Shown: positions 1,491 to 12,578 of the stretch, in pieces
How positions within the stretch are numbered: the first letter of the stretch is position 1
Layout: every line of letters begins with the position of its first letter
Source of the DNA: Thermotogota bacterium
GTDB taxonomy: Bacteria > Thermotogota > Thermotogae > Petrotogales > Kosmotogaceae
Assembly: GCA_034660555.1 (NCBI GenBank)
Contig: JAYEJL010000087.1
Coordinates: 1 to 12,578, forward strand
Direction: 5' to 3'
Length of the DNA: 12,578 nt
Notes under the pieces: model-generated
The model's database searches: none
What the model was told of the DNA's origin: nothing
Seen by the model: only the letters and a program-made list of their open reading frames with translations
Program-made: the position numbers and the translations under genes

Positions 1491-2180
1491 ATGAGTGAAG
1501 AAATAATAGTAGCGCTTGCCGGTAATCCAAACTCAGGTAAGACCACATTATTTAACAATTTAACAGGGTCACGACAGCATGTTGGTAACTGGCCCGGTGT
1601 GACTGTTGAGAAAAAAGAAGGGAGATGCAACTACGAAGGTTACAATATCAGGGTGATTGATCTACCGGGTGTTTACAGTCTCACAGCATATTCACCTGAT
1701 GAAATTGTCGCACGAAATTTTATTGTTGAAGATAAACCAGACGTGGTCGTAAACATAGTTGACGCTTCAAATTTAGAGCGCAACCTTTATCTTACTGTAC
1801 AAATTCTTGAAATGCAGGCACCATTGATAATCGCCTTAAATATGCTGGATATTGCTAAATCCAGGCAATATGATATAGACATTGAGCGGCTTTCAGATGA
1901 AATGGGATCAACGGTTGTTCCAATGGTAGCTACCCGCAATCATGGAACAAAAAAGTTACTTGAAGAAATTGTAAAAGAATTTAAGAGAAAAGATGACCGA
2001 AAGAAAATTAAACTTCATTACGGTAGAGAAATAGAAAAGCACATAAAAGAACTGGAAAATCTTATTTCTCGTGACAAAGAACTTTCAAAACGTTATCCAC
2101 CCAGATGGCTGGCAATAAAACTTCTTGAAGAAGATAATGAAGTTTTGAAGAAGTTAGGAGAGATAAATAATGAATACTGA
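1491..2180 (+). CDS. feoB: FeoB N-terminal GTPase/helical domain (split feoB, part 1)
   Basis: G1 GNPNSGKT, G2 [10 protein letters not shown]3 DLPG, G4 [15 protein letters not shown], and helical-domain RWLAIKLLE. Confidence 0.93.
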
Positions 2181-3510
2181 AGAGATACTAAAAGCAAAGG
2201 ACAGGAGCGTTAATCATCTTAGAACGGTTTTGGGAGAAGATTCGGAAACAGCTATTGCTGATGCCAGATATGGTTTTATTCACGGATTGCTTAATGATGT
2301 AATAAAAAAGCCAGAATACGAGCAACCTACATTCTCCGATAAAATTGACAGAATTGTTGTGAATCGCTGGTTAGGTATCCCACTGTTCTTAGTAATTATA
2401 TACGGTGTGTTTCAACTCGTGTTTAGCCTGTCGGAACCATTTATGAGCTGGATCGAAAGCCTTTTTGGATGGCTTGGTTCTCAAGCATCAAATGTTTCAC
2501 CCGACTGGCTCGGTTCCTTTCTGGCTGATGGTGTGATTGAGGGAATCGGTGCTGTTCTTGTATTCATCCCTCCAATATTCTTGCTATTTATTGCGGTTTC
2601 AATTCTGGAAGATTCAGGTTATATGGCCAGAGCAGCTTTTGTTATGGATAGAGTAATGCACAAAATAGGTTTACACGGTCGTTCTTTTATTCCATTGATT
2701 TTGGGTTTTGGTTGTAACGTACCCGGTATTATGGCTTGCAGAACCATAGAGAACCGTGAAGATCGGTTAACTACAATTTTAATCAATCCATTTATGTCCT
2801 GCGGAGCCAGACTTCCAATTTATGTTCTCTTTGCAGGTGCATTTTTCGCAAAGTATCAGGGTCTCGTTATTTTCTCCATGTATATTATTGGGATAATTAT
2901 AGCTATAATCACAGCCCTAATACTTCGTAAAACCATTCTAAAAGGGCCAAGTGCACATTTTGTTATGGAGTTACCTCCTTATCGTTTGCCCACGATTATT
3001 GGCATATTGACACACATGTGGGAACGTGGCAGGCTGTTTTTAAGGAAAGCAGGAACAATTATTTTTGGAGCAGTTATTCTGGTATGGCTTCTTAGCAGTT
3101 TACCTTGGGGAGTAGAATATGCGAGTGCTGAAAGTCTTATTGGCAGAATCGGTAGTTTCATTGCACCGATATTTTCTTTTAGTGGCTTTGGACAATGGCA
3201 GGCTAGCGTAAGCCTTATTTTTGGTTTGATAGCAAAAGAAGTTGTTGTCGGTACAATGGGCACACTATTTGCTGCTGAAGGAGAAATATTGGGTGGCACA
3301 ATAGCAACCGAACTTGGATGGACTTCACTCAATGCATATGCGTTTATGGTTTTTACCGCGCTATACATACCATGTGTAGCGGCTATTGGAGCGATCAGGG
3401 CAGAAACAAAATCCTGGAAATGGACAGGTTTTTCAATATTGTACTCAACGGGAGTTGCCTGGTTACTTGCCACATTAATTTTCCAGATAGGCAGATTATT
3501 CACAGGTTAA
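2170..3510 (+). CDS. feoB: FeoB membrane (Gate/FeoB_C) domain (split feoB, part 2)
   Basis: [66 protein letters not shown]; many TM segments; own RBS AGGAG (2156-2160). Confidence 0.93.
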
Positions 3511-6179: not shown

Positions 6180-6276
6180 GAAAAACAGTTATTGAAGAAA
6201 AAAACAATACCCAAGAGAGGTAAGGCGTTAGTTACTTATGGCCCTGGGGACAATGAACTATTGTTTTATACATGGG
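6180..6276 (+). repeat. Structured ~95-bp non-coding element, copy 1 (direct repeat with 9643-9744)
   Basis: Core 6200-6249 matches 9664-9713 at 46/50 positions, with gapped similarity continuing on both sides; contains nested inverted repeats. Confidence 0.9.
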
Positions 6277-9656: not shown

Positions 9657-9744
9657 AAGAACAAAAAACAATACCCAGGAGAGGTAAGGGGTTAATTACT
9701 TATGACCCTGGGGGGTCAATAAACTATTGACTATATACACTGGA
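9643..9744 (+). repeat. Structured ~95-bp non-coding element, copy 2
   Basis: See copy 1; outer stem CCCAGG/CCTGGG and perfect palindrome GTCAATA-aac-TATTGAC (9715-9731). Confidence 0.9.
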
Positions 9745-9755
9745 AAATGTAGTAT
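9727..9755 (+). promoter_or_regulatory. Sigma70-like promoter at the right end of repeat copy 2
   Basis: TTGACT (9727-9732), 17-bp spacer, TAGTAT (9750-9755); the -35 overlaps the GTCAATA/TATTGAC palindrome. Confidence 0.5.
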
Positions 9756-10026
9756 TCCTTTTTTACCAAATAATATGTATATTAACGGTTTGCCTATAAC
9801 TAGCTTTTTTATAACTCATTTTTGGTTAGATAAATGGGCTTATTATGGTGATTATGGTTGTTCTGCAACAGTTGATTCTCAGCTTTTTGGTTTTGCAAAA
9901 GTAGAAGGATTATCAGAAATTATTGATGGTAGAACATTAACATTAGAAATTAAAACACCCTCTGATAAAATATATTTCACTCTATCTCCTCAATTAGAGA
10001 AATATATTAACTTTATTGGTTTATAA
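9727..10026 (+). pseudogene. Probable 3' fragment of a hypothetical gene
   Basis: Protein-like reading frame to TAA 10026; its TTG start lies within the repeat/promoter; stop is followed closely by the next gene's RBS. Confidence 0.5.
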
Positions 10027-10957: not shown

Positions 10958-11167
10958 ATGAGTAAAGCAACTGGTTGTGCTGTGTCTTTTCTTGTCTTTC
11001 TTGCGATAATAATAATTATTTCACTTGCCACTATGGGTGGAGATAATAGTAAACCAACTGAAACTGATGCATATTATTTTGCAAGAGAATTTGTAAAAAA
11101 ACATTTAAAAGCACGACTTCTGGGACAGACTCCATTCTTTACCAACATTCTATCCGGCTGTTTATGA
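10958..11167 (+). pseudogene. Membrane-anchored hypothetical protein, probably 3'-truncated at ~11113
   Basis: Strong RBS GAGGTGG; TM segment then TDAYYFAREFVKKHLKA; afterwards runs into the TGGGACAG motif and sequence leading to the transposase repeats. Confidence 0.6.
11121..11133 (+). mobile_element. Candidate left terminal motif (TGGGACAGACTCC) of the Y1/RAYT element
   Basis: Resembles the GGGG(A/T)(C/G)A(C/G)-type short terminal motif I recall for some Y1 HUH transposase subclasses; lies where the upstream ORF loses coding character. Confidence 0.4.
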
Positions 11168-11210
11168 GTATTTGGGGCTATTTGGAATGAAGTAAAATAA
11201 CAGAAAGGTT

Positions 11211-11300
11211 GATTTGCGATTTGATAAGCAATCGGATATGCTGCTTGAGGAACAGCAGGATATGCATGCCAGGAGAAGGCATGGATATGCGACTACGTCG
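11211..11300 (+). repeat. Tandem array of four hairpins joined by a constant GAT(A/T)TG linker
   Basis: GATTTG-CGATT/AATCG, GATATG-CTGCT/AGCAG, GATATG-CATGCC/GGCATG, GATATG-CGAC/GTCG; unit lengths 24, 24, 25, 17. Confidence 0.85.
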
Positions 11301-11303
11301 GAG

Positions 11304-11385
11304 ACACCCCTCCCCGCTTTGCGGTACTCCCCTCAAGTGGAGACTACCCCTAGCCACTTAAAGCAACTCTTTTCAAGGAAAGATT
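11304..11385 (+). repeat. REP-like ACACCCC / TCAA-loop hairpin units (one clear, one degenerate)
   Basis: ACACCCC, CCGC-ttt-GCGG, CTCCCC-tcaa-GTGGAG; then ACCCC ... TCTTTT-caag-GAAAGA; counterpart at 12356-12399. Confidence 0.7.
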
Positions 11386-11444
11386 TTTTAATAGCGCTTG
11401 TATACAGTATAATTTGAGATAGACAAATCAAATGAGGTGGAACT

Positions 11445-12170
11445 GTGCCGAGGAATGCGAGGATTGTTTTTAAGGGGATAGCTCATCACATTACTCAACG
11501 TGGCAATTACAGACAAAACATTTTTTCAGAGGATGAAGATAGGGAAAAATATATCGAGTTTCTAAAGAAATATTCAAGGAAGTACAAGTTGAAGATATAT
11601 GCTTATTGTCTTATGACCAATCATGTTCACTTTATTGCTGTTCCTGAGAAGGAGGATTCTCTTGCTTTTACCTTTAAATATACCAATATGTGTTATTCCA
11701 ATTATTATCACAGGAAAAACAGGAAATCAGGTCATTTATGGCAGAGCAGGTTTTATTCCTGCCCTTTACATTACAATCATGCAGTTGAAGCCTTGAGATA
11801 TGTGGAGAGGAATCCTGTTCGAGCAAAGATGGTTGAGTTTCCCTAGGATTATAAATGGCCCAGTGCCAGAGCTCATGTATTAGCTTCTATTGATGAAAAA
11901 ACAGGTGATGGACCAAGAAAGAAAAATAATGAGAAAGAACCTTCATTTTACTCCTGTACACTTCCTTTGTATTCTCTTAATGATTTAGATGTCAACTGGA
12001 GTCCTGAAGGTTGGAAAGATTATTTAGGTTATCCAGATGATGAGGATTTTCTTTCCAAGATGAGAAGCAATACGTTTTCAGGAAAACCTTTCTTTGGTGA
12101 TACTTTGCTTGAGAAAGTTGAAGAGAAGTTGGGGGTTTCTTTGAGGAGAAAGATATCTAAGAAAAAATGA
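11445..12170 (+). pseudogene. REP-associated tyrosine transposase (RAYT; IS200-like Y1 HUH superfamily) with one premature TAG
   Basis: MPRNARIV, HHITQRGN.RQ.IF, AYCLMTNHVH (HUH), GHLWQSRFYS, RYVERNPVRA (catalytic Tyr), P*DYKWPSARAH, RSNTFSGKPF. ORFs 11445-11846 and 11967-12170 are in frame across TAG 11844-11846. RBS GAGGTGG; TATAAT at 11408-11413. Confidence 0.9.
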
Positions 12171-12229
12171 CGTCCAACGTTCCACTTGGTCCACGGTCCA
12201 ACGCTTGTTATTACAAGCTTCGTCCATCG
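12171..12229 (+). repeat. Degenerate GTCCA-core short repeats with an internal hairpin (related block at 12533-12578)
   Basis: cgtccaa, cgttcca, ggtccac, ggtccaa, cgtccat; hairpin GCTTGT-tatt-ACAAGC at 12203-12218. Confidence 0.7.
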
Positions 12230-12301
12230 ACAATTCAACAATGCAAATAACGTTGTCGGTTGTCCGTTGTAGGTTGTTCGGAAGTTCAAGTGCTAAATGC
12301 T

Positions 12302-12329
12302 GATATGCGAATCTAACGATTCGGGTATG
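12302..12329 (+). repeat. GATATG-hairpin unit downstream of the transposase
   Basis: GATATG-CGAATC-taac-GATTCG-GGTATG, the same grammar as 11211-11300. Confidence 0.8.
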
Positions 12330-12355
12330 AGCTTCGCAGTTAAAGATCAAAAATC

Positions 12356-12399
12356 ACACCCCCAGCTAAGCACAGCTGGCCACCCTCAAGGGTGGAATC
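12356..12399 (+). repeat. REP-like ACACCCC / TCAA-loop double hairpin
   Basis: ACACCCC, CCAGCT-aagcac-AGCTGG, CCACCC-tcaa-GGGTGG. Confidence 0.75.
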
Positions 12400-12472
12400 C
12401 TCAAAATAGACGAAACACGTTGTACGATAGTTCGTTGTAGGTTGTTCGGAAGCTCAGAAAATGAAAAACAAG

Positions 12473-12522
12473 AACCGAGAAGGACCAAGGAGACGAGAGT
12501 CCGAGAAACCGAGAACCCGAGA
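12473..12522 (+). repeat. Degenerate CCGAGA-core short tandem repeats
   Basis: aaccgagaa, gacgagag, tccgagaa, accgagaa, cccgagag; about 8-nt period near the end. Confidence 0.7.
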
Positions 12523-12578
12523 GTAAAAACAACGTCCATCGTCCAACGCTCACCTTGCAGCTCGCTTGGTCCATCGAA

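Follow-up and report, generated by a model that had tools for sequence, protein, structure and literature searches.

A hairpin array beside a broken Y1 HUH gene

The window analysed here, i.e. the whole 12,578-nt stretch of DNA from a Thermotogota bacterium, carries near its 3' end a broken gene for a Y1 HUH protein (11445-12170, + strand), identified by Pfam (Y1_Tnp, 1.2e-12) and by the motifs NHVH, WQ and YVERNP. Upstream of this gene, at 11211-11300 on the + strand, direct reading and a script give an array of four abutting perfect stem-loops, whose stems are unlike one another and each of which comes after GATTTG or GATATG. Two further units of this kind lie downstream of the gene, and on both sides the units are accompanied by a second family of hairpins.

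The first unit of the array (U1, 11211-11234, +) consists of GATTTG (11211-16) followed by CGATT, an 8-nt loop and AATCG (11217-34), and the second (U2, 11235-11258, +) of GATATG (11235-40) followed by CTGCT, again an 8-nt loop, and AGCAG (11241-58). In U3 (11259-11283, +) GATATG (11259-64) precedes CATGCC/GGCATG around a 7-nt loop (11265-83), while in U4 (11284-11300, +), which abuts the unit a described below, GATATG (11284-89) is followed by CGAC and GTCG around the 3-nt loop TAC (11290-11300). Start-to-start spacing from U1 to U4 is 24, 24 and 25 nt. The fifth unit, downstream of the gene (U5, 12302-12323, +), has GATATG at 12302-07 and CGAATC/TAAC/GATTCG at 12308-23, and the sixth and weaker one directly after it (U6, 12324-12341, +) has GGTATG at 12324-29 and AGCT/TCGC/AGTT, with one G.T pair, at 12330-41. 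A first-pass annotation, made from the letters of the window, had described four consecutive perfect stems, opened by a C-G pair, preceded by GAT(A/T)TG and repeated about every 24 nt, together with a fifth unit at 12302-12323; re-derivation of the coordinates confirmed both points and added the sixth unit. The constant word is actually eight nucleotides long and not six, since GGATATGC occurs exactly three times (11234, 11258 and 11283) and at no other site in the window, and G is the base on either side of all five stems from U1 to U5. The 26 pairs of the inner stems of these five units include no G.U. The units have in common a GATATGC start, a purine-rich loop and a final G, U1 and U2 being about 58% identical; these two differ at six of 10 bases in the stem, three of eight in the loop and one of six in the linker, and the three of their five stem pairs that differ do so on both sides.

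That structure would be conserved here and sequence would not, as had been proposed, is borne out by the outer three alignable stem pairs of U1, U2, U3 and U5, in which 12 of 12 cells are paired and two of the three pairs are changed on both sides. This compensation is equalled by four of 500 shuffles, and slid controls pair in 11-42% of cases. As a control for chance, chains of abutting perfect hairpins were counted in the window and in 100 dinucleotide shuffles of it. Chains of at least three hairpins are common in this AT-rich DNA (eight in the window, where shuffled sequence averages 5.9), whereas chains of at least four units number two against 0.52, and chains in which all linkers are identical number two (one array, seen on both strands) against 0.02 per shuffle. 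A second comparison was provided by 80 loci (L001-L080) among the matches listed in a search for homologues of the Y1 protein. These loci are distant, with a Y1 identity of 39-53% except for the partial L055 (61% over 145 residues), and the set leaves out the source genome, Kosmotoga pacifica and closer Thermotogota homologues. In these loci (967,397 bases, both strands) none of 1109 chains has two or more identical linkers of at least 5 nt, and G[AG]T[AT]TG is directly followed by a perfect hairpin at 59 of 1879 sites (3.1%), compared to six of 35 in the window, five of which are U1-U5. The array is real and non-random. The anticipated enrichment over shuffled sequence was thus found, and so was the predicted invisibility to ordinary repeat finders, the array being absent both from the output of Tandem Repeats Finder and from the families shown by a seed-based finder.

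The core of the linker, ATAT, is self-complementary and pairs with the ATAT of the next linker to form an outer stem of four A-T pairs, and therefore each unit is an imperfect palindrome of about 30 nt. From the outside inwards, this palindrome has an AT foot, a constant G.G mismatch, a constant C-G pair, a variable top of three to five pairs and a loop of 3-8 nt, the mismatch beside the stem being kept in five of five units. Since such a foot is its own complement, it is common to neighbouring units, and this gives the array its appearance of variable hairpins joined by a constant linker. With both of its linkers U3 forms an 11-pair stem interrupted by the G.G mismatch, and folded as DNA this extended U3 reaches -9.5 kcal/mol on the + strand (z -5.0) and -6.0 kcal/mol on the minus strand. 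U5 with its flanks, a 34-nt palindrome, reaches -9.1 kcal/mol (z -5.1) and -6.2 kcal/mol, respectively, and the extended U2 reaches -7.0 kcal/mol on the + strand (z -3.05). The + strand fold is thus better by 3 kcal/mol for both U3 and U5. In addition, wobble pairs occur on the + strand only: a T.G in the extended U5, a G.T in U6 and two T.G in the unit b described below, all of which become A.C on the minus strand.

Open frames do span the array, namely open reading frames (ORFs) of 67 aa (11214-11417), 50 aa (11209-11361) and, on the minus strand, 59 aa (11178-11357), so that a small protein-coding gene would be conceivable. However, searches found no homologue of the 67-aa frame, of a 90-aa minus frame over U5 or, among 1.84 billion representatives, of the 59-aa minus frame, the 24, 24, 25 period breaks the reading frame and no ribosome site is suitably spaced, all of which makes a coding function extremely improbable. 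Several known types of repeat were rejected as well. A CRISPR array is excluded by a constant part of 6-8 nt, where repeats of at least 23 nt are required, by a variable part that is a palindrome of 11-19 nt and by the lack of cas genes. Type III antitoxin repeats and ANTAR dual hexaloops do not agree with a period of 24/24/25, a constant part of 6-8 nt, units that are not identical and loops of 8, 8, 7 and 3 nt. Finally, the likeness of GGATA to a DnaA box amounts, by eye, to five or six of nine positions.

The Y1 gene and the module that flanks it

The Y1 gene is interrupted by an in-frame TAG at 11844-46, where 12 of 12 aligned homologues have Trp, in agreement with the first-pass annotation, which had noted that TAG takes the place of a Trp codon in the transposase. 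Since TAG also ends two confident genes of the window it is a true stop here, and the gene is broken. Read through the TAG, the protein has 241 aa and aligns over its full length to the 12 homologues. Its C-terminus (12145-12170) reads ...RRKISKKK, without the RGRPKK tail of the homologues, 11 of 12 of which end in ...R(K/R)PRGRP(K/R)K and one in ...LPMGRPRK; this AT-hook-like end is thus changed here besides the internal stop. The named homologues come from Kosmotoga, Mesotoga and Kosmotogaceae, the best being 92% identical and the next about 61-63%, and the Kosmotoga pacifica homologue is 59% identical. Scores against NCBIfam profiles remain below their cut-offs, both for the tyrosine transposase associated with repetitive extragenic palindromes (REPs), or RAYT (64.7 bits, cut-off 80), and for IS200 (22 bits, cut-off 55). 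The motifs and length fit those given for class 2, subclass 2.1 (NHVH, W[EQ], Y..xNP, about 238 aa and a C-terminal domain; Quentin 2018), and judged by its sequence the gene is of the TIRYT/subclass 2.1 type. This subclass, found in about 15% of the strains surveyed (Quentin 2018, Table 1), has been equated with the TIRYTs, whose genes are flanked by inverted repeats with GGGGWSAS (Di Nocera 2013; Quentin 2018) and whose C-terminal domain has been likened to helix-turn-helix domains (Quentin 2018, section 15).

The hairpin units described above belong to a larger module. Directly after U4 follow two tandem units of about 40 nt. Unit a (11300-11342, +) begins with GGAGACACCCC, one mismatch away from GGGGWSAS, and contains the hairpins GGAG/CTCC and CCGC/GCGG and then a hairpin with TCAA in its loop, while unit b (11339-11383, +) is a second a-type copy, GGAGACTACCCC ... 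TCAAGG, whose last hairpin is TCTTT/AAAGA. Downstream of the gene, unit c (12355-12395, +), which starts twenty-six bases after U6, is homologous to a and b and has CACACCCCC, the hairpin CCAGCT/AGCTGG and then CCACCC/TCAA/GGGTGG. When the three are aligned ACCCC and TCAAG are invariant and their spacing is fixed, and the last hairpin has TCAA in or at its loop in each. This hairpin is compensated too, since 16 of 18 cells are paired and three of six pairs are changed on both sides, a result equalled by 16 of 500 shuffles, and a covariance model (R1) built from unit b gives 56.5 bits for b itself and 46.3 bits for c. The 5' flanks of U1 and U5 are also alike (AAAGGTTGATTTGCGATT and AAATGCTGATATGCGAAT, 14 of 18 bases). 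The order of the module is therefore the same on either side of the gene and in direct orientation: a first unit with or without additional ones, then ACACCCC, a variable hairpin and the TCAA hairpin. Its ends follow the patterns TGATWTGCGA and ACACCCC-hairpin-CCCTCAAG, and its downstream copy (U5/U6/c) starts 132 nt after the stop of the Y1 gene. Upstream and on the strand of the gene, GGAGACAC at 11300 and GGAGACTA at 11339 resemble GGGGWSAS, the former with one mismatch, and no inverted copy of this kind was found in the 408 nt downstream, where the window ends. Neither TCAAG (43 in the window, 34.1 expected; 13 of 200 shuffles as high, i.e. no significant enrichment) nor YTCAAGKG (four, 1.7 expected; 26 of 200 shuffles as high) stands out from chance, and the TCAA/TCAAG signal is a lead only.

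Other repeats surround the module. Element C1 (12257-12292, +) is a heptad-like GTTGTNN run, ...GTTGTTCGGAAG, ending in TTCAAGTG, and a second copy, C2, lies at 12425-12456 with 20 nt that are 100% identical; a copy at 11168-11193 is weak and doubtful. The DNA 3' of the gene is altogether rich in low-complexity repeats (12171-12260, 12252-12277 and 12460-12578), among which are GTCCAACG-type words (12189-12205 and 12534-12550), 3.7 copies of the GTTGTNN heptad and 2.8 copies of CCGAGAAA; the window ends inside this field, which may continue beyond it. Base composition changes here as well. In a window with a low overall GC content (34.8%), GC rises from about 30% to about 40% in sliding windows starting at 11000-11200, just before the start of the array, and stays high until the end. 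A joint acquisition of array, Y1 gene and downstream repeats is possible. GC skew is +0.10 for the window and positive in every 2-kb block. This agrees weakly with the + strand being the lagging-strand template, the strand exposed at the fork.

Could this be a mere minisatellite? In this alternative, which we consider rather unlikely, a palindromic unit of 24 nt was duplicated and drifted without any function, its stems being kept by intrastrand template switching. In this process, known as quasi-palindrome correction, a mutation in one arm is copied to the other. The common start, loop and final G and the identity of about 58% between U1 and U2 do suggest descent by duplication, the locus is decaying, with a broken gene and with other low-complexity repeats that Tandem Repeats Finder reports at 12252-77 and 12501-22, and no relatives were found in the 80 loci listed, in plasmids, in phages or by searches with translated frames. 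However, stems differ more than loops and linkers when U1 is compared with U2, whereas drift constrained by pairing should have the reverse effect, and the G.G mismatch, which correction should remove, is kept in all five units. Moreover U5, 1 kb away, has the same design with another stem and stands beside a second compensated hairpin family.

The first-pass annotation had proposed, as an alternative, that the array is a multivalent protein-binding RNA scaffold in the leader of the transposase gene. A place in the leader is unlikely, because the only good, if putative, -10 box (TATAAT, 11408-13, +) and the ribosome site (GAGGTGG, 11434-40, +), both read by eye, lie downstream of the array, and because the TCTTT/AAAGA hairpin of unit b is followed by T6 (11368-89, +), which looks like a weak terminator in between. 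A consensus promoter scan showed no promoter-like site at 11408-11440 and no convincing promoter upstream of the array.

A function at the level of RNA is the likeliest of the alternatives, although it is itself unlikely on balance. The + strand could provide the 3' end of the upstream operon's transcript, as a cluster of hairpins acting in termination or as a barrier to 3' exonucleases, or it could give a separate small RNA whose many GGA serve as a sponge for a CsrA-type protein. From the stop codon of an ORF on the same strand (10958-11167) to the array there are 44 nt, and Gupta and Pal (2021) have proposed as termination units those hairpins that are separated by less than 15 nt and lie no more than 80 nt from a stop codon; the U5/U6/c module also follows a gene, at the distance given above, and REPs lie mostly downstream of genes, where many are plausibly transcribed (Di Nocera 2013). 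The weak hairpin and T6 could end such an RNA, and the G.T pairs of the + strand are compatible with RNA. Six GGA occur in 11211-11310, the maximum for any 100-nt stretch of the window (0.24% of stretches reach six), and they alternate between loops (U2 and U3) and linkers. However, three of the six come from the one repeated linker, and GGA is not the conserved feature since the flanks of U5 have none. The inner stems of U1-U5 contain no G.U, no convincing promoter precedes the array, the RNA fold of 11180-11420 is no better than that of shuffled sequence (z -0.92 on the + and -1.49 on the minus strand), and no Rfam family matches 11170-11444 or 12171-12578 at E values up to 10. One chance match, to sau-66 (E 6.2), falls within the gene at 11464-11536, and neither tRNA nor tmRNA was found. 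REPs are known to act at the RNA level once they are transcribed, so that this explanation overlaps the one that we favour below.

Further upstream, the window encodes an iron-dependent repressor, two FeoA, FeoB, a 5'-nucleotidase, a type IIG restriction-modification enzyme and four small ORFs that belong to no family. FeoB is split into two ORFs (1491-2180 and 2170-3510) that overlap by 11 nt within the cytosolic helical domain (profile positions 1-46 and 48-90), which points to a frameshift, either in a pseudogene or through sequencing error. In addition, there is a direct repeat of 51 nt, 92% identical between its copies (6199-6249 and 9663-9713) and without a match in Rfam. One copy closely precedes the restriction-modification gene, which starts at 6272, and the other an ORF at 9727-10026. 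The repeat contains the inverted repeat CCCAGG...CCTGGG around GGAGAGG, and might serve both genes as a 5' leader or regulatory hairpin, or else bracket the enzyme gene as a site of recombination.

A tentative reading: a REP-like cluster

We tentatively read the array as a lineage-specific cluster of single-strand hairpins, akin to REPs and bacterial interspersed mosaic elements (BIMEs) and known from a single locus, which would be recognised by their shape and foot; we give this reading a little less than an even chance. The array would then consist of head-to-tail, REP-like palindromes within a strand-asymmetric, hairpin-rich module that flanks a broken TIRYT-type Y1 gene in a Thermotogota genome. 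The foot, the mismatch and the closing pair would be the parts that a protein reads, while the variable top would have to do no more than pair. The likeliest, if putative, reader is the neighbouring Y1 protein or an intact paralogue, acting on + strand DNA in its single-stranded form, and the units would have spread by reiteration. Such reading of shape resembles the known habit of Y1 proteins, which recognise the shape of single-stranded hairpins and not duplex sequence.

Several findings weigh against this scenario, to which the differences from REPs listed in the last section have to be added. Since the gene is broken, any activity from this copy is past, and no further copy of the units was found in the other 11 kb of the window. 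The inner hairpins are weak as RNA (-1.4 to -7.5 kcal/mol at 37 C and 0 to -2.2 kcal/mol at 65 C), so that in a thermophile the foot or a protein would be needed for folding. Subclass 2.1 is reported to have no REPs, whether looked for automatically or manually (Quentin 2018). Further contrary evidence comes from the 80 loci listed. None has a GATATG-type array, none has a unit of the a/b/c type (best covariance-model match 15.6 bits, E 0.59) and none resembles the flanks of the gene by short-word blastn (best E 0.79). What they have instead is GGGAC[AG][GC], found within 300 nt upstream of the gene in 72 of the 80, mostly 52-58 nt before the start and abutting TTGACA, with an inverted copy within 600 nt downstream in 66. 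This is the layout known for TIRtrons, and the Thermotogota loci of the set (L001 and L002) have GGGACAG upstream and no array. An association of the array with the transposase family, as first envisaged, is therefore not supported by these distant loci. The array differs from a canonical REP, is unlikely to be part of a leader and, judged by these loci, does not accompany this type of transposase throughout the family. As for the idea that GATATG is the foot of a class of REPs, it survives insofar as hairpins stand on both sides of a Y1 gene, and it fails insofar as ATAT is paired and is not a single-stranded word like GTAG.

The layout of the homologous loci is of interest in its own right. 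The small and strongly conserved hairpin motif, which reads AATAGGGACAG(C/A)(G/C)ACCTATTT (examples are at 8859 in L006 and at 9946 in L022) and lies some 50-60 nt before the Y1 start at a near-fixed distance, abutting TTGACA, in 72 of the 80 loci listed, is found among these loci in Planctomycetota, Omnitrophota, Nitrospirota, Desulfobacterota and others, and its inverted copy lies 36-70 nt after the gene in 66 of them. The fixed fusion of this motif to a promoter suggests autoregulation, and it may be undescribed, although the GGGGWSAS repeats of TIRYTs are known. Several of the listed loci, e.g. L045 and L036, have tandem or paired repeats with a period of about 23-30 nt, and such repeat clusters around other members of the family speak for the REP-like reading. 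Often, partial copies of the 5' part of the motif 'stutter' in tandem before the full motif (e.g. AATAGG-AAAT three to four times); such copies lie upstream of the Y1 gene in L056 (about 490-560), L022 (about 9920-9960), L009 (about 3190-3250), L020, L036, L054 and L059, and look as if the left arm had repeatedly been re-copied or internally deleted.

That a conserved motif sits at the promoter in 72 of the 80 listed relatives makes protein-DNA contacts upstream of these genes likely in general, and it lends some support to another explanation, in which GGATATGC is a direct repeat of duplex, iteron-like sites spaced by 24-25 bp, to which a regulator or the Y1 protein's C-terminal domain would bind, the palindromes being incidental. 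In its favour are also the three exact 8-mers, regularly spaced just upstream of the control region of the gene, and, in the homologues, the RGRPKK tail and the C-terminal domain likened to helix-turn-helix domains (Quentin 2018). However, such sites would explain neither the perfect and compensated palindrome in every spacer nor U5, which stands alone 1 kb away and 3' of the gene; the relatives have another motif (GGGACAG), and the protein of the window has no RGRPKK tail. We regard this explanation as improbable.

Other searches returned little. Collections of plasmid and phage DNA contain no match to the query DNA, and a tblastn search of plasmids with one homologue (P0001) gave 28 records with matches, none of which reaches 60% identity (the 15 listed span 19.6-38.7%). 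Among the papers listed in literature searches, none describes such a hairpin array in its title or in the opening of its abstract.

A bolder extension of the REP-like reading, which we find distinctly doubtful, is that a Thermotogota branch of the large TIRYT/subclass 2.1 Y1 family has its natural substrate in these units, which would represent a class of repeats defined by shape. Head-to-tail stacking would be possible in such a class because the foot is self-complementary, and the repeats might have spread as small gene-less elements in the style of IS200/IS605, bounded by TCAA. If this were true, the class would be invisible to repeat finders that rely on sequence and could be widespread. 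We know of no DNA substrate or role for subclass 2.1 Y1 HUH proteins, and the locus offers a concrete candidate substrate, with constant structural marks and freely varying tops. If further copies exist, a search based on shape could reveal a hidden class of repeats in low-GC thermophile genomes; if there are none, the array is an oddity of this one place, where a mobile-element locus is in decay.

Likeness to known systems

Two of the systems with which the array can be compared lie outside the world of transposases. The sponge RNAs CsrB and RsmZ consist of several short hairpins with unlike stems and have GGA in their loops and single-stranded joints. The array shares the short hairpins of unlike stems and the GGA in loops and joints, six of them in 100 nt, but there is no Rfam match and no clear promoter, U5 is without GGA, the loops are not conserved and only a weak hairpin followed by T6 could end the transcript. 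The attC sites of integrons are single-stranded hairpins with conserved foot bases, unpaired recognition marks and a variable centre that is always paired. A conserved foot, unpaired marks and a variable, paired top are found here as well. However, attC sites are 57-141 nt long, are used by a tyrosine recombinase and have gene cassettes between them, none of which applies to the array.

The likeness is closer to the REPs and BIMEs found around RAYT genes (REPtrons). These are imperfect palindromes of about 30 nt, which form regularly spaced clusters to either side of a Y1 HUH gene and mostly downstream of coding regions, and in both cases it is probably as single-stranded hairpins, read by a Y1 protein, that the palindromes are active. 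Known REPs keep their stem sequence between copies, have a GT[AG]G or CGTC foot and are rarely arranged head-to-tail (Di Nocera 2013; Quentin 2018). By contrast, the foot of U1-U5 is G[AG]T[AT]TG, without GTAG, GTGG or CGTC, and their inner stems differ between copies where those of REPs are near-identical. The units are also head-to-tail and share their feet, while REPs are arranged head-to-head or tail-to-tail (Di Nocera 2013), and the gene does not belong to a REP-associated subclass. With respect to the layout of a REPtron, the Y1 gene does have units to either side, though these are directly oriented, and it scores 64.7 bits where the cut-off is 80.

With TIRtrons the locus shares the gene itself, i.e. 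the NHVH, WQ and Y..NP motifs, a length of about 240 aa and a common C-terminal region, as well as the GGGGWSAS-like GGAGACAC/GGAGACTA upstream and on the strand of the gene, as in 72 of the 80 relatives listed. The flanking modules, however, are direct and not inverted, and the GATATG units have no counterpart in these relatives.

Finally, there is the IS200/IS605 family, from which the gene is set apart by its tyrosine motif, YVERNP (Y..NP, class 2) instead of Y...Q (subclass 1.1). In IS608, TnpA reads subterminal imperfect palindromes on one strand, in lagging-strand template DNA; TCAA follows the right hairpin on its 3' side at 10 nt, and TTAC precedes the left hairpin on its 5' side at 19 nt (He 2011). 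The four bases that precede the hairpins here do not complement TCAA, so that no guide complementarity is seen. Nevertheless, units a and c each have a TCAA at a distance of 6-8 nt from the end of a hairpin, another TCAA precedes the foot of U5 by 18 nt, and like-oriented hairpins stand on both sides of the gene and on one strand, which is reminiscent of the recognition of shape in IS608. With the same module in the same orientation on both sides, the locus is more reminiscent of IS200/IS605 elements, whose two ends are like-oriented, than of other TIRYT loci with their inverted repeats.

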